In this document: piece by piece, positions 2,233-16,124 of the stretch | How the letters are laid out: each line of letters starts with the position of its first letter | How positions within the stretch are numbered: position 1 is the stretch's first letter | Assembly (NCBI GenBank): GCA_951406725.2 | Contig: OX597823.1 | Location: forward strand, 93,868,001 to 93,932,000 | DNA length: 64,000 nucleotides | Origin: Octopus vulgaris | Taxonomy: Eukaryota | Reading direction: 5' to 3' | Notes under the pieces: generated by a model | The model's input: only the letters and a program-made list of their open reading frames with translations | Database searches by the model: none | What the model was told of the DNA's origin: nothing | Made by a program: the position numbers and the translations under genes

Positions 2233-3110
2233 TAAGGCTGAGTAAAAAGTAAGCAACGTTTTGAAACATGAAATTCATCATAAAATATTTCAACAACGGG
2301 TATGTTTTATTCATCAAAGTAAGTACTATTACAATCAACGCATTTTTGCAAACGCGTCACAAATTTTTTTATTTCGGTAACGTTAAAAAAATGTTCTGGA
2401 GCTTATTAACTCTTTGAATGCCTTTTCAGCATCAGATTTGATTTTTGAACGCCTTCTCTCACAGGAAACCAAACCATCAAGCTGCTTGAAAAAGTGGTAG
2501 TCGGTAGAAGAAAGTTCTGGAGAATAAGCTGGGCAGAAAGAACTTCTTGGCCAAGTTCTCCCAACCTCTGGAGCGTCATTAGTGAAACAACGTGTGGTCG
2601 AGCACTGTCATGAAGAATGATTGGCCCTCATCTGTTGACCAGTCTGGGGCGGAGAAGTAGCATGTTTTCGTTCATTTTGGCAATTTCATGGCAATATGTT
2701 TCTGCAGTAATGGTTTTTCCGGGTTTTAAGAAGTTATAGTGGATGAGTCCTGCAGTATATCACCAAACAGTCATCTTATCTTTCTTTTTGAAGCGCTCAG
2801 ATTTAGGGAAGGCTTCCGGTGCTTCATTTTGGTCCAAACACTGCGAAGAACGTTTTTATTATTGTACAAAATCCACTTTTCCTCGCAAGTTACAATACAG
2901 TGGACAAATAGATCGGTCCAGTTACAGAAAAAGCGAGCAAATTTCATATCTGCACATTTTCTGATTTTCGTTTAAATCGTGTGGTACCCATTTGTCGAGC
3001 ATTTCTGATTTTCTGATCGCATGCAAATTGTTGCAGGCAAACTTGAAGTTCTTTTGCCAGTTCTCGAGTAGTTTTGTGTGGGTCTTTCTCAATGACGGTC
3101 TTTAATTGAC
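2233..3110 (-). mobile_element. Decayed mariner (Tc1/mariner) transposon, 5'-truncated transposase pseudogene
   Basis: Minus-strand fragments: HTH 'KDPHKTTRELAKEL', 'WVPHDL', 'LHDSARPHV', 'AYSPELSSTDYHFFKQL' (WVPHEL and YSPDL signatures); TIR-like end after TA at ~2233; frameshifts present. Confidence 0.88.
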
Positions 3111-3297
3111 CGGCGTCCCTAGTACTCAACTGGTACTTATTTTATCGGTCCTAAAAGAACGGTGAAGTCAACATCGGAGGAATTTGATTTCAGAAAAATG
3201 TACACGGACGAAATGTTGCTAATACCTTTGTGTCTGGCGTACTAACTGTTCGCCTTGATATGAATGTTTGAATATAATTTTCAGTCAACGTACGTAA

Positions 3298-3358
<61 letters not shown>

Positions 3359-4031
3359 CTATCTACTTCTTTATCTATCTCTCTTCTCTCTCTCTATCTA
3401 CAGTGAAGAACAGTACACAAATATACACACACCTATACCCACACAAACACATATACGCACACAGACACGCATGAAAGCACGTTCGCATGTGGATTTCGTA
3501 CTAAGATATAATTACAAATCTACTTCGAAGCACATATTCAAGTAATTAGCAAAATACATCTGTACTGTCATTGTGGGAAATCATTATAACATGCTAGAAG
3601 CCGTAATATCTCTGCGTTATTGAATATTTAAGGAAAAATGAGGCGGCTGCGCAGTTAAATGATTGTTGCTGTCGACTCAGAAGGGAGCTCACTGGCGCTC
3701 AGTAATGTGATTACAACGTAAATACACGAATCTGCATTTATTTACGCAGATGCAAAAAAGAGGCGTTTGTTTAGATGCTACGTATATATAATATATATTG
3801 AGAGATGGAGAGATAGATAGATACATACATGGATACATGCATACATACACACAATCATACATGCATGCATGCATACATATACAGATGCATGCATATACAT
3901 GCATACACACAAACATACATACATGCGTACATAAATGCATACATACATACATTCATACATATATACATGCATGTATACATATATACATAGATGCATACAT
4001 ACATATGTACATACATGTATTCATACATACT

Positions 4032-4083
<52 letters not shown>

Positions 4084-4830
4084 CATACATACACGCATAC
4101 AGATATACATACAAGCATACATACATACATGAATATATACATACATAGATACATACAGCATACATACATGCATACATACATGCATACATACATGTATACA
4201 TACATATTCATACATACATACATAGATGCATACATACACATGCATGTATATCTCTTTTAAAATCAAAGAGAAACATATGTATAGACACCTCCTTGAATAC
4301 CACTATTTTCTATATCCAGATTATGTGTTCATATCTATACCAATAATGATTTGTATACTTTCTGTCCGTCAGTGTATATCGGTCATAGGGAAACTTCAGA
4401 CTCGGTAATGACCCCATTGTCTTGCGCCATTTCCGCTCTGTCTTTGTTCGGACTGTCTTTTCACAAAGGGCCATCCGGACGCCTGCTTTCACGTGGACCT
4501 GAATTAATCCTCTCTTTTCCTCCTTTGCGCCACATGGGCGCAACTCACCTTCTCTCTTCATCCGTCATCAACCTCACATCATCTCTTCATTTGATTCTAA
4601 CTCATCTCCACTATGCATGCTTTCGGTGCGAATGTTTTTTTTTGTTTTTTTTTATACGGTGCCACTTTTACAATCCTGTAAATAATAATAATGTTATTTT
4701 TATATAAGCTTAAAGCTTATAGCGATCACTGAGCAATGACTAAGGAAAATAGTCTAATAAACGGCATCTAAGCCTTCGAGGGATAAAAGAGGGCTTTCCT
4801 ATCCGCTTGGAATACATATATATATATATA

Positions 4831-9798: not shown

Positions 9799-10257
9799 CA
9801 ATTTAAACGTAATACTTAACCGGTTTCACTCTTTGGTAAAAGTAACATTGAATAATATGGGTTCAAAAAAGTTTTTTACATAATTGTCACATTGAATATT
9901 ATGCATTCAAAAAAGTTTTTTACATAATTGTCACATTGGATATTATGAATTCAAAAATGTTTTTTTGATACAAAATTGTCACATTACATGGATAAATATA
10001 GTGTATAAATATAGAGAAGTTCAATAGTGTGATGAGAATATTTGGAAAAATTGGCAGAAAAGGATAAAACAAATATATTATTGGAAATTTGGTTGCGTTA
10101 ATTATTGGTTGTCGCAAATTGTCACATTACATGTATATATATACAGTCTTTGGTATATATATACAATATTTTGACAGCAAACATTAAAATGGATTTTTTC
10201 TACATCTCAGAATAAGTTGAAGGCGAGAATATGTTATTACTGACCTGTTTGTTTCAG
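9799..10257 (-). repeat. 5' inverted pseudo-LTR of the PLE
   Basis: Reverse complement of 15531-16022 with few substitutions and several small indels; contains ~44-bp internal tandem subrepeats ('taattgtcacattgaatattatg'). Confidence 0.92.
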
Positions 10258-10265
10258 TCCCGAAA

Positions 10266-11612
10266 ATGCCACCCAAATCACAACAAGCAGAATCTTTAAT
10301 GAACCAAAATATCCTAAAAGAATTACAAGAAATCTCCTCGAAACTTTCAACCATAATAAACAAAGTCGAACAATCGCACTTATACCTAAATGGACTCATG
10401 GAGGCCAAAACAACCAATCAAATCCCTGACATCATCCCAACACTGCAAGACCTAATGAAATCCATAGAGACGGCAGTGCTCCCAAAGCAGGAGCAAACTA
10501 AAGACTGCTTCTCAATTAAAAGCTCTCTTAACAACACCTGGAGTAAAAATCTCAAAGCGCGTAAGTTTGCCTTCTGGAATTTCATAAAAAATAACAACAA
10601 AGCTGACATTTATGAAAAGTGGCTCAACTCCACCCCTATCATCCTACCCAGAAAACTACAAATAAAACCCATCCAAAATGAACCAGAAAACCAAAAAAAC
10701 CTCAGGGAGAAACTAGCTTTTGAAAAATTCAAAACGGAAGTAGAACTCTTGCGGCTCAGAGCCAACGCCAGTGAAGAAAAATCCAAGACCCTTGACAATG
10801 AAATGCAGATTGAAATCTCAAAACACTGTGAAGGATTACTCCTTGATGAAACCACCAAACTCTGGAGAAAAAACTGCGAGGATGAAGAACTAACATCCCT
10901 CCAGCGAATGGAAAAAAACAGCTGGTTCACCAATTATGAAACAGAGTTCACAAAGGAACACCTTTCAAGCAACCCATATTTTAAAATATCTACTTCAACT
11001 CACACCCCTCGCCAAAAACAAAGAAAACCAACCACAAAACACCGAACACACACCACCCCTAACATCAACAACAACAACAACAGAACTTACAGACAGCACT
11101 ACAATCCCATCAAAAGAACCGAGACACCCATCATCACAAGACAAAACTTTACCAGACAACGTAGACCCCAACCCACACAAGAACCGTTCCAGATTCGGAG
11201 ATCCTACCCTTCACTTAGAAACCCATCTCTGAACTATGATTGTAGATTCCAACCCAAACCGCTCCTAACTCAGAGTTCTCCCCCAACATATAGGAATTCA
11301 CTTCTAAACCATGAATATAGTTTCCAACCTACTCTAAGGAACCAACATTACACCCAGGACAAACAACCCAGACCCTGGAATAACCAAAACTCTTCCAGGA
11401 GGCCACACCAACAACCCAGACCCTGGAACAACCAAAACCTCTTCAACAGACAACATATCAACGGGGGACAGAATCACAACAACCAAAACCTCTTCAACAG
11501 ACAACATATCAACGGGGGACAGAATCACATACAGCAAAATACCGCAAACAGAAGAACCCCCAGGATTCCTTTTTTAGGCAAGGGCATCAGTTTCCACGAC
11601 ACCAGATGGTAG
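10266..11612 (+). CDS. PLE ORF1, 448 aa, unknown function (helical/coiled-coil N-half, Q/N/R/P-rich low-complexity C-half)
   Basis: Long uninterrupted non-microsatellite ORF directly upstream of RT, same A/C-rich strand bias; heptad-like segments; duplicated peptides QPRPWNNQN and NNQNLFNRQHINGGQNH. Confidence 0.8.
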   Translation: MPPKSQQAESLMNQNILKELQEISSKLSTIINKVEQSHLYLNGLMEAKTTNQIPDIIPTLQDLMKSIETAVLPKQEQTKDCFSIKSSLNNTWSKNLKARKFAFWNFIKNNNKADIYEKWLNSTPIILPRKLQIKPIQNEPENQKNLREKLAFEKFKTEVELLRLRANASEEKSKTLDNEMQIEISKHCEGLLLDETTKLWRKNCEDEELTSLQRMEKNSWFTNYETEFTKEHLSSNPYFKISTSTHTPRQKQRKPTTKHRTHTTPNINNNNNRTYRQHYNPIKRTETPIITRQNFTRQRRPQPTQEPFQIRRSYPSLRNPSLNYDCRFQPKPLLTQSSPPTYRNSLLNHEYSFQPTLRNQHYTQDKQPRPWNNQNSSRRPHQQPRPWNNQNLFNRQHINGGQNHNNQNLFNRQHINGGQNHIQQNTANRRTPRIPFLGKGISFHDTRW

Positions 11613-13417
11613 ATACCAACCCCGAAAAAACCAAAAATAGTGAATCTTTCTAACCTAAACCTGTCGACACCACAAATAAAAATCCTTTCAAGAGGACTAA
11701 AATTCACCCCAACTCCGCAATACCCTAACCTGAGGGAAATACAAGATGACATCTCACACTTTTGCAGAAAATTACGCCTCACAGAGGAATTTTTTGACAG
11801 GAAAACGAATAATAACGACGAATCAATGGTCTGTAACAAAAGCAACTATAATCCCATAAAAGGCAAAAACAAAACCTTAGACAAATTTTGCGATTACATC
11901 TCCAACTTCCCTAAACTCAAACCTAAACTCAACACCAGTAAAAGAGAATGGGAAATCATCCATACGCTACGAGACAATCATGACGTCACAATAAAGGAAG
12001 CTGATAAGGGTAGTACGGTCGTTGTTATGAATACTGAGCAATATAAAAACTCTGTATCTCTCCTTTTAGAGGATACCACATACTACGAAAGAGTAGTCGA
12101 CTACCAGCAATCCAAAACAATGACCAAACTGAAGGCACTCATTTACCAACACCGGAATGACTTGACAGCAAAGGAATGCGACTACATTACTAAATTTATT
12201 TGCAAAACCAGCACACTCTATGGGCTTCCAAAAATACACAAGTGTCAAATTATCACAGAAGCTTGCAAAATATCCACTTCAACCTGCATCACTATACCAC
12301 ATCCCACTGATCTCAAACTGAGACCAATAGTGGCAGGCCCAAGTTGTGAAACACACAGACTTAGCAACTTTATAGATATCATCTTAAAGCCAATACTGAA
12401 ACATATTCCAAGTATTGTAAGAGATGACCTGGACCTATTAAATCATCTCCCCAAACATGCCGATAAAGACACCTTAATCGTTTCTTTTGATGTTATTAAT
12501 CTTTACACCACAATCCCACATGAATATGGACTGGAAGCCATTAAATTCTGGCTGGATAAATATCCCAATGAGATCCCGGAAAGAATTAAAAAAGAATTCA
12601 TAATTGAGGGCCTCAAATTTATTCTGCAAAACAACTTCATGTATTTCCACAACAACACTTACAGACAGGTCTCAGGAACTGCAATGGGTACGAAAGTTGC
12701 ACCTACCTATGCAAACCTGGTGATGGCCTACCTGGAATCACATATCTATGAAAAATCCAAATATAAGTACGGCCAGTCTTTCCACAAATACCTGTTGGAG
12801 AACTGGAAACGCTACTTAGATGATTGCCTCATCCTATGGTCCCACACACTCGACCAACTTATAGACTTCAAAAACCTTATCAACAGTGTAAATAACAACA
12901 TTCAATTCACAATGGAATATAGTCAGGACCAACTCCCTTTTCTTGACATCCTAATCATTAAAAAAGGCGTCAACATTGAAACTGACATCCATTACAAACC
13001 CACTGACTCTAAACAATACCTTCTATTCACCTCCAATCACCCAAAACACACAAAGACAAATATCCCCTTCAACCTAGCGAGAAGAATCTGCACTATTGTC
13101 TCAAATGACACAACACGAAATAGAAGACTCCGGGAACTAAGGGCAATTCTTCTCGAAAGACATTACCCGGCATCACTAGTAGACAACGGAATAGAACGGG
13201 CCAAATCAATCAACATTCAAGACCTACGAAAACCCAAACACATCCACAGTACAGTAAATAGCCTCCCCTATCTCTCAACACAGAACCCAAGGAATGCGGA
13301 AGCTTACACTATTATATACAACAACATTCCACAACTAAATCAAGACCCACGCCTGAAAAAAATACTGGCAGCTCATAAAATAATAACAAGTAAGAGACAA
13401 CCTAAATCCCTAAAAAA
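11613..13417 (+). CDS. Penelope-like reverse transcriptase (track ORF 11640-13514; true frame leaves at the A7 run near 13411-13417)
   Basis: Motifs VNLS..LSRGLKFTP, IKEADKG, LYGLPKIHK, LRPIVAG, SFDVINLYTTIP, GTAMGTKVAPTYANL, RYLDD, LPFLDI, KPTD..YL..SNHP. Confidence 0.95.
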
Positions 13418-13869
13418 ACCTCCTCACCAACGCAAAATTACACAACACAAACCCACCGCCCACCATCAAAAAATGTGGTCGCCCCAACTGCAAGACCTGC
13501 ATCCACCTCATTGAGGGATCGTCGTACAAGTTCCACTCGGGACACACATTCATCATAAAAAATAATTTCACGTGCGCATCAAAAAATTTACTCTACGTCA
13601 TAAGGTGTGAAGGATGCCACGAAGACTACATAGGGCAAACGAGCCTTACCCTCAGAGAAAGAATGACAGTTCACCGACAACAACTGAGGGACCCCTCCAC
13701 AAGACAGATACCACTAAGTGGACACTTAGACCTTTGTGCACACAATAAGTCCCCCAAATTCTTAGTCTTCCCACTATACCAATGGTCGGACAACACCACA
13801 GACCAAACACGAATAAATAAGGAAAGTAATCTTATTCAAAAATACAGACCACAACTAAACATACTCTAA
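13418..13869 (+). CDS. Zn-finger linker + GIY-YIG endonuclease of the PLE, frameshifted relative to RT
   Basis: The shifted frame reads LLTNAKL..KCGRPNCKTC..FTCASKNLLYVIRCEGCHEDYIGQT..LRERMTVHR..GHL..KESNLIQKYRPQLNIL*; continuous with track ORF 13663-13869. Confidence 0.92.
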
Positions 13870-14019
13870 CATACCCCCTGGAAACACATCCAGAGCAAGC
13901 ACACAGGGACACGCGCACACTCACAGCATATCGTGCGGGCGGGCACATGCACGCATCGGCACGCATAGGACACACTAGCGGGCATTGACCGCACACATAC
14001 GTGGCATACACACGCATGC

Positions 14020-14302
14020 ATTATATATATGTAGGTTATGTATGTGTGTGAGTGTTGTGTGTGTGTGTGTGTGTGCACGTTGTGTGTGTGTGTGCGCGTG
14101 TGTATATATATGTGTGTGTGTGTGTGCACTGTGTGCGCGCGTTGTGTGTGTGTGTGTGTGCACGTGTGTATATATGTGTGTGTGTGTGTGCACGTGTGTA
14201 TATATGTGTGTGTGTGTGCACTGTGTGCGTGTGTGTGTGTATGTGTGTGTGTGTGTGTGAGCATTGTATACGTGTGTATGTATTTACATGTGTATTTGTT
14301 TT

Positions 14303-14333
<31 letters not shown>

Positions 14334-14529
14334 TGTGTGTGTATATGCATGGTATGTGTGTATATGTGAGTACATTGTTTGTGTGTGTGTGCGGTATGTA
14401 GAGATATATTTGAGTGTGTACGCTATAGGTTTGTAATTTGTGTGTGTGGGTGTGTGTGTGAATTTTTTATATATATATGTGTGTGTATGTGTGTGAAAAA
14501 ATATATGTATGTGCATGTATGTATGTATG

Positions 14530-14574
<45 letters not shown>

Positions 14575-15380
14575 GTGTGTATATGTATGTGTGTGTGTGT
14601 ATATTTATTTGCATGTTTATGCGTGTATAAACATGTGCATTATTTGCATGCACATTGGGTATATGTATATTGTATGTATGTGTATTGTATATGTATGTGT
14701 ACAATTAAGTGTATATATGTGTGTGTATGTGTGCATTGTATATATGTATATTGTAGGTGTGCCATATGTGCATGAATACATGTATATGCATTGCGTGTAT
14801 ATATATGTATGCATTGTGTATGTATGTTATGTGTGTGTGTGTTTATATATATTATATGTATGCGTACGTGTATGTGTATGCATTGTATGTATGTATATTG
14901 TGTGTATATGTGGTACATCTATGTATGTGTATGTAAACACTATTTATATGTATACATGTATATATGTATATGCATTGTCTATATATATATATATTATATG
15001 TATGTATTGCGTACGTATATTGCATGCATATATTGTGTATGTGTATTATATACATGCTGTATTTGTATATTGTATGTGCATATATATACTAGGTGTATTT
15101 GTGTGATATTTATATTATGTATGTATGTGTGCGTGTCTTGTGTTTGTGTGTGTGTGTGTGTTGTGTGTGTACGTGTGTTATATATATGTGTGTATATTAT
15201 ATATAAATACATGTTATATTTGTGTGTTGTGTGTATATATTATATATGTGGGTGCGTTGTGTGTGTGTGTGTGTGTTCTGTGTGTGTGTGTGTGTTGTGT
15301 GTATGTGGTGTGTGTTTGTATACTATGTGTGTGTGTGTGTGTGTGTTGTTGTGTGTGTGTGTGTGTATATATATGTGTGT
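14020..15380. repeat. Degenerate (TG)/(TA) cryptically simple tract inside the PLE 3' region
   Basis: ~1.35 kb of imperfect TG/TA dinucleotides between the endonuclease stop and the 3' pseudo-LTR. Confidence 0.9.
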
Positions 15381-15530
15381 GACAAACAGACGCTGCTTGA
15401 CCAGCAGGCACAGACACATCTATTCACACCCACATACTAACCTCCTGTTAACCCCAAAACCATTGATGCTTGAAGGGGAAGTATACACCACACTGGGTAC
15501 AACCTTTTTTCTCTCAATTCAACCTTTATG

Positions 15531-16022
15531 CTAAAACAAACAGGTCAGTAACAACATATTCTCGCCTTCAACTTAAAATATTCTGAGATGTAGAAAAAAT
15601 CCATTTTAATTTTTGCTGTCAAAAGATTGTATATATATACCAAAGACTGTATATATATACATGTAATGTGACAATTTGCGACAACCAATAATTAACGCAA
15701 CCAAATTTCCAATAATATATTTGTTTTATCCTTTTCTGCCAATTTTTCCAAATATTCTCATCACACTATTGAACTTCTCTGTTACCAAACACTATATTTA
15801 TACATGTAATGTGACAATTTTGTATAAAAAAACATTTTTGAATTCATAATATCCAATGTGACAATTATGTAAAAAACTTTTTTGAATGCATAATATTCAA
15901 TGTGACAATTATGTAAAAAATTTTTTTGAACCCATATTATTCAATGTTACTTTTAATATTACTTTTGACAATCTTTTACCAAAGAGTGAAACCGGTTAAG
16001 TAAATAAACATCGTTTAAATTG
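15531..16022 (+). repeat. 3' pseudo-LTR of the PLE
   Basis: Inverted copy of 9799-10257; ends with GAAACCGGTT..AATAAA. Confidence 0.92.
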
Positions 16023-16088
16023 CATTTTCAAACCTTTTTTCTTATATAATCCCACTCGTGCGATACCCCACAACTCAACTTTTTTATA

Positions 16089-16124
<36 letters not shown>

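Follow-up and report, generated by a model that had tools for sequence, protein, structure and literature searches.

The 64,000-nucleotide stretch of DNA analysed here (the window) contains a Penelope-like element (PLE) at about positions 10256-16090, in which an ORF1 is followed by a reverse transcriptase (RT) frame and then by a GIY-YIG endonuclease (EN) frame, all on the + strand. ORF1 (10266..11612, 448 aa) has a predicted all-helical N-terminal domain (about residues 1-240) and a low-complexity N/Q/R/P tail that ends with PFLGKGISFHDTRW immediately before the TAG stop codon (11610..11612). Within the tail, and in the phase of ORF1, is a potential slippery heptamer, T_TTT_TTA (11570..11576); the next base is G (11577), which with the last base of the heptamer also gives an AG. 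An ATG (11606..11608) overlaps the Arg-Trp codons of ORF1 in the -1 frame, which is the RT frame of the family. ORF2, encoding the RT, a linker Zn finger and the GIY-YIG domain, occupies this -1 frame (11570..13869) and is broken in the window copy. The run of six A at 11625..11630 is a private insertion, the run having five bases in all 46 other copies, and a second private extra A, in the A-run at 13412..13418, splits the RT from the endonuclease. Matches to RVT_1 and to GIY-YIG (PF01541) in the window element are above cut-off; in sister copies the two domains share one ORF, and the intact sister L032 has the GLKF, DKG and YLDD motifs. Between RT and EN the linker Zn finger (CX2-5CxxC) is present as CGRPNCKTC and together with the endonuclease covers 13414..13869. 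The (TG)n-rich 3' untranslated region and the terminal repeat (pLTR), which ends in a (TA)n tract, extend from 13870 to 16090, and the 5' end adjoins a partial, inverted copy of the pLTR (9838..10254, - strand). The window's family shows pLTRs, ends in tandem or inverted arrangement, and (TA)n targets. Its nearest named RT homologs come from Octopus, Argonauta and bivalves, and the host is probably an octopus.

Several features of the element ends were also examined. An acceptor-like sequence, TGTTTGTTTCAG, just 5' to the ORF1 ATG was rejected as a candidate, as it is the inverted pLTR/5'-end junction of the window copy alone and is absent from 10 full-length sisters. On its antisense strand (window 10228-10258; the inverted source lies near 15535-15560, - strand) the pLTR has CTGAC, which resembles a branch point, together with a pyrimidine tract and an AG. 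It is at this AG that the inverted pLTR of the window copy meets the 5' end, with the ORF1 ATG 8 nt further on. At the pLTR end of L032 (positions 2939 and 2955; window about 16045-16060), contigs of run X7 have loose ends with adapter-like letters, which we take to resemble a template-switch adapter; this suggests RNA 5' ends running antisense from the pLTR end. No Rfam hammerhead was found among 6 loci, in a type of scan that minimal variants escape; the hammerhead core pattern is absent from the element in L032 and occurs near the element ends in L199 and L152. Searching the element against Rfam gave only repeat-driven matches, all under threshold, and a scan of viral contigs detected no relatives of the element.

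The original prediction described the ORF1/RT junction from the window copy, and much of that description can be read directly from the sequence: ORF1 reads CCT TTT TTA GGC AAG across the heptamer, the heptamer lies 33 nt upstream of the TAG, and no stop interrupts the -1 frame across the A-runs. The heptamer is also, as had been stated, that of the HIV-1 gag-pol shift site, U_UUU_UUA (PMC5009743). Taken on its own, the heptamer of the window copy is not beyond chance; ORF1 there has five in-phase X_XXY_YYZ heptamers, four of which are A-runs. It is significant because it is conserved, among families and among ORF1 homologs, and not by its presence in a single copy.

Copies of the window's family (c0) were compared at the junction. 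Of the first 30 loci, 24 have an RT in the -1 frame, and six A at 11625-11630 occur in the window copy only. Removal of duplicates by coordinate gave 47 distinct copies, of which 37 have T6-AG at the family spacing; one more has a three-base deletion that keeps the frame, so that 38 of the 47 have a -1 frame RT. Five T instead of six are found in 7/47 copies, across several sub-lineages, and a one-base insertion downstream of the heptamer in two (the window copy and L011); a seventh T occurs in none of the 47. A sense codon at 11610-11612 in sister copies, together with an unconserved heptamer, had been named beforehand as the result that would speak against recoding; the TAG is kept in all 47 copies and the heptamer is conserved. 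Intact sisters have ORF1 plus one 776-codon RT-EN frame (ORF2) that starts 7 codons 5' to the heptamer. Measured against L032, the window copy carries one additional A in each of two A-runs (11625 and 13412), is 15 bases shorter near 11912-11930, and differs by 41 substitutions over 3,643 bases. The sixth A at 11625-11630, present in 1/47 copies, is thus a mutation or assembly error that creates an apparent in-frame UAG: the placement of the RT in the ORF1 frame past a single TAG holds for the window copy but not for the family. The earlier suspicion of one A too many was correct, but the joined product proposed, TKIVNLS, was not; sisters read PKIVNLS because the extra base sits in the first A-run. 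The statement that the RT has no nearby ATG has to be withdrawn, since the ATG at 11606-11608 (agATGgTAG) is in the -1 frame, which reads MVDTNPEKPKIVNLS in sisters. The junction feature is real at the level of the family, not of the copy.

Further families were collected by searches with two homologs and from additional stretches of sequence. This gave four more families from the element's own genome (c1-c4), which, with c0, are 48-67% identical to one another in RT and 26-45% in ORF1. The T-run is found at the family spacing in 18/20 loci of c1, 20/20 of c2, 2/2 of c3 and 16/21 of c4. Scans of MAG and metagenome contigs yielded 122 loci, and the six with both an ORF1 homolog and an RT N-terminus were used; the PLE loci on MAG contigs presumably represent host DNA in bacterial bins. 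PLE RT proteins and DNA are present in bacterial MAGs and symbiont genomes, presumably likewise as host contamination. The count of 11 families used below consists of the five own-genome families and these six loci. Not counted were c5 (L126, which lacks an upstream ORF1), c6 (L135, a single decayed copy whose run is five T), L233 (an in-phase TTTTTTG, no ORF1 match and a long branch), L239 (with just 80 nt of upstream sequence), and the 116 of 122 external loci that have no ORF1 homolog or no RT N-terminus.

All 11 families have two overlapping ORFs, and in every one the overlap contains an in-phase T_TTT_TT(A/T/G): TTTTTTA in nine, TTTTTTT and TTTTTTG in one each. The background of in-frame T_TTT_TT is 6 in 10,855 other codons. 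These families are related by descent, and the family counts are therefore not independent trials. From the heptamer to the I-x-N-L-S motif of the RT the -1 frame is open in 11/11 families, over distances of 8-47 codons, and in 10/11 it closes at 0-12 codons on the upstream side; the ORF1 stop follows 3-25 codons past the heptamer in all 11. Since the -1 frame is closed just upstream, and the distance from heptamer to RT is variable yet always open, entry into the RT frame must be at the site. In 9/11 families the first in-frame AUG is beyond the I-x-N-L-S motif (for example at +133, +105 and +112 codons) or missing; one of these nine is a young family in which most copies still have an ORF2 of 775 codons. 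An AUG ahead of the RT N-terminal motif is found in only 2/11 families.

A quick RT tree (with L205 and L208 left out) grouped nine families together (SH-aLRT 100) and separated them from a sister group that has no ORF1 of the window type; as it contains no named Neptune or Nematis references, this tree shows only that the frameshift families form a single clade. Some other features of these relatives deserve mention. Family c4 in G000 is very young: of the 150 matches scored, most are identical in score and have an ORF2 of 775 codons. In L124, L098 and G000:C1:197484215, one-base changes in A-runs near the junction produce long single frames (1,199 and 984 codons), the 1,199-codon frame being seen in 2 of the 150 matches scored. 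A sister PLE clade with a GLNFCPTPG motif (L216, L223, L225, L227 and L228) has AT-rich, intron-like DNA ending TTTCAG/TTTTACAG, six codons 5' to IVNLS, and no ORF1 match was found in these five loci; this clade possibly has a conserved intron at the place of the shift site. In the more distant PLE L158, a long upstream ORF (1808-2896) overlaps the RT ORF (2701-4797) in the -1 frame; the overlap contains in-phase G_GGT_TTT and C_CCA_AAC, and there is no match to ORF1 of the window type.

A profile search with ORF1 detected 1,197 clusters at 50% identity. None of the best 150 of these is a full ORF1-RT fusion protein, and a separate look for longer, fused ORF1 homologs gave none either, which is a weak test. 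The tails examined were those of at least 80 aa among representatives of the 50%-identity clusters (103 of the 149 new matches listed). F[LF] occurs within the last 45 aa of 86/103 homologs, versus 6/96 in the preceding window. The residue before it is H, S, R, P, N, D, Y, L, F, I or G and never K, E, Q, M or W, five residues that lack a codon ending in T and account for 19.8% of ORF1 tail residues. At the level of protein, this is the trace that a T_TTT_TTN constraint on the DNA would be expected to leave. The residue after F[LF] is G-starting in 60/86 homologs versus 19% expected, a bias that would fit a preferred 3' context and a splice acceptor alike. Many tails also have a Trp (DTRW, DHNW) 7-11 codons past FL, which yields ATG or CTG in the -1 frame (window 11577-11612) and may be a protein or RNA motif. 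For a 9-sequence alignment AlphaFold2 predicted an all-helical 250-residue ORF1 domain (mean pLDDT 81, pTM 0.61). No Pfam family is common to the members, and no significant match was found among PDB sequences, PDB folds or viral folds beyond generic coiled coils; Pfam, PDB sequence and fold comparisons detected no similarity to Gag. By analogy with Gag and LINE ORF1p, ORF1 may be an RNA-packaging or chaperone protein.

The RNA around the site was then compared with shuffled sequences. Over the 80 nt 3' to the heptamer, none of the five own-genome families folds better than its shuffles (z -0.33 to +1.63), and the same holds for 9/11 families overall; hairpins are predicted only in L200 and L203 (z -3.6 and -3.2). 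The 181 nt around the site gave z -0.08, and a scan of the junction for the pseudoknot that might have been expected there found nothing above shuffles. Contigs bridge the junction unspliced for c0 in 4/4 runs and for c4 in 3/4, run X10 having no cover at the c4 junction; the status of these runs as RNA is a guess. In the same contigs, which can drop rare forms, no joint is listed at either candidate acceptor, and no T insertion is present at the T-run in the runs examined. In one contig (run X9 record 22), the 5' region of family c4 (L148:11-540) shows clustered A>G differences in a pattern like that of ADAR editing.

Taken together, these observations make it likely that tandem -1 slippage at U_UUU_UUA yields a minor ORF1-RT-EN fusion beside an abundant ORF1 protein. 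This was one of the two routes originally proposed, -1 frameshifting with one extra A in the window copy, and it is supported by the frames of the sister copies and by the conservation of the heptamer. Of the features that define a gag-pol-type -1 frameshift, a conserved zero-frame X_XXY_YYZ and an open -1 ORF with an early zero-frame stop are present, and a 3' stimulatory hairpin or pseudoknot was not found in the five own-genome families.

An alternative, which we consider unlikely, is that TTTTTTAG is a 3' splice site at which an upstream exon is spliced on to give an RT-endonuclease mRNA; foamy-virus pol is made from a spliced mRNA of this kind. An acceptor would explain the G right after the heptamer, which forms an AG after the T-run in 9/11 families and counts against frameshifting, as well as the G-starting residue in 60/86 homologs. 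However, the corresponding residue is not G-starting in the other 26, 14 of which have Y, F or W, and one contig (run X5 record 12) has that G changed to A with T6A kept. The AG is missing in c4 and L152, although in both the first AG past the T-run is in the same RT-frame phase. Spliceosomal introns are known in PLEs (PMC4209133, in part), and acceptor-like ends lie directly 5' to IVNLS in the sister clade. In contrast, no strong donor of the needed phase was found within ORF1 in 5/5 families using four donor patterns, the T-run holds exact codon phase in ORF1, and the site is bridged by unspliced contigs, with the proviso on rare forms given above.

A start codon belonging to ORF2 itself, the AUG at 11606 (CUG or AUA there in other families), could also be used, through termination-reinitiation or from a shorter mRNA; as a general explanation this is distinctly unlikely. 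The AUG of c0 is well placed, overlapping the ORF1 stop (AUGgUAG) in 47/47 copies, which again counts against frameshifting. The same position is CTG, ATA, ATG and ATG in c1, c2, c3 and c6, respectively, and for several homologous RT proteins the start that has been called is a Met some 10 residues ahead of V/IINLS. Nevertheless, 9/11 families have no AUG there, c4, L203 and L205 are without any such codon, and the NTG arises from the conserved Trp codon of ORF1. TGGGA, the TURBS motif, is absent upstream, and conservation of the heptamer would be left unexplained. In c0 the AUG at 11606 may serve as a side route, giving a second way to the RT.

It is very unlikely that slippage on the T-run by a polymerase, either RNA polymerase II or the RT of the element, adds a base and so produces a fusion mRNA. 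The run is unstable, as the 7/47 copies with five T in several sub-lineages attest, and RT slippage at the HIV U6A has been reported (PMC5737442, in part). But a six-base run is short, slippage of this type would not depend on the X_XXY_YYZ phase, which is fixed in 11/11 families, and no T7 copy among the 47 and no T insertion in the contigs examined were found. Readthrough of the UAG, the other route originally proposed to join ORF1 and RT, was rejected, because it takes up a reading frame private to the window copy (the RT is in frame behind the TAG in 2/47 copies only, by two different single-base insertions) where sister copies place the RT in the -1 frame, and because the position and codon of the ORF1 stop vary among families.

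On the frameshift reading, most ribosomes would reach the stop 3-25 codons past the heptamer and make the ORF1 protein. In a minority, tRNA-Phe and tRNA-Leu would slip in tandem and about 770 more codons would be read, giving ORF1-RT-GIY-YIG. Such minor slippage would maintain a high ratio of ORF1 to enzyme. Given that the five own-genome families have no predicted local structure on the 3' side, slippage would occur at a low level, and either the heptamer itself or an undetected stimulator would drive it.

More tentatively, we suggest that these elements may make up a large unrecognised EN+ Penelope clade, abundant in molluscs, with its own Gag-like ORF1 family (the 1,197 clusters at 50% identity, of no known fold) and with -1 frameshifting at U_UUU_UUA that needs no downstream RNA structure. 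There would then be hundreds of natural structure-free sites in animal genomes, possibly with a new kind of stimulator, such as the G context 3' to the heptamer, the ORF1 stop close by or the ORF1 protein itself. EN+ Penelope elements have so far been described without a packaging protein, and a conserved ORF1 with a gag-pol-like frameshift would change the picture of their expression and RNP assembly. Annotated RT proteins of the frameshift clade would lack their real N-terminus, and the ORF1-RT-EN layout would be the correct construct for reconstituting transposition. The families also form a broad natural series, one shift site with widely varying flanks, in which structure-free frameshifting is directly testable.

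The window's family has in common with EN+ PLEs of the Neptune/Nematis type an RT with GxKF and DKG, the linker Zn finger and a GIY-YIG at the C-terminus, as well as pLTRs with inverted and tandem structures and (TA)n targets (PMC8557442, in part). Canonical EN+ PLEs are described in that source as single-ORF (Craig et al. 2021, PMC8557442), whereas the frameshift clade has a separate ORF1 of 350-470 aa and the RT-EN in the -1 frame. The single-ORF description fails where the other EN+ features are present, and we therefore treat the clade as a variant, without assigning it to any named clade. Its likeness to Neptune/Nematis is one of features, the tree being without named sequences of either. 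The Fundulus Neptune element repeat.CL27 is an EN+ PLE with an unknown ORF1 before the RT ORF; as compared by its description, that ORF1 is 420 nt and non-overlapping, and no frameshift is proposed in the part of the source available (PMC12602865). In the literature searched, with figures, supplements and Repbase/Dfam outside its scope, we met with no account of programmed frameshifting in EN+ PLEs.

The EN- Athena/Coprina elements are defined by the absence of the endonuclease, and here a GIY-YIG is present. A frameshift with a pseudoknot behind ORF1 is the layout of the EN- Athena/Terminon PLEs. The legend to Fig. 1 of PMC8557442 speaks of a PLE ORF1 'separated by a frameshift with a pseudoknot' and may mean EN+ elements with ORF1 and frameshift too. 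Like the PLEs of that legend, the frameshift clade has a helical ORF1 upstream of a PLE RT and joined to it by a frameshift; unlike them, it is endonuclease-bearing and dispersed, and no pseudoknot was found at its junction. The available part of PMC5009743, which deals with HIV-1 gag-pol, makes no mention of Penelope. Compared with gag-pol, the clade has no 3' stem-loop in most families, is not an LTR element and has an ORF1 without detectable similarity to Gag. It has in common with gag-pol the U_UUU_UUA heptamer, the -1 overlap, and a structural ORF placed ahead of the enzyme ORF (PMC5009743).
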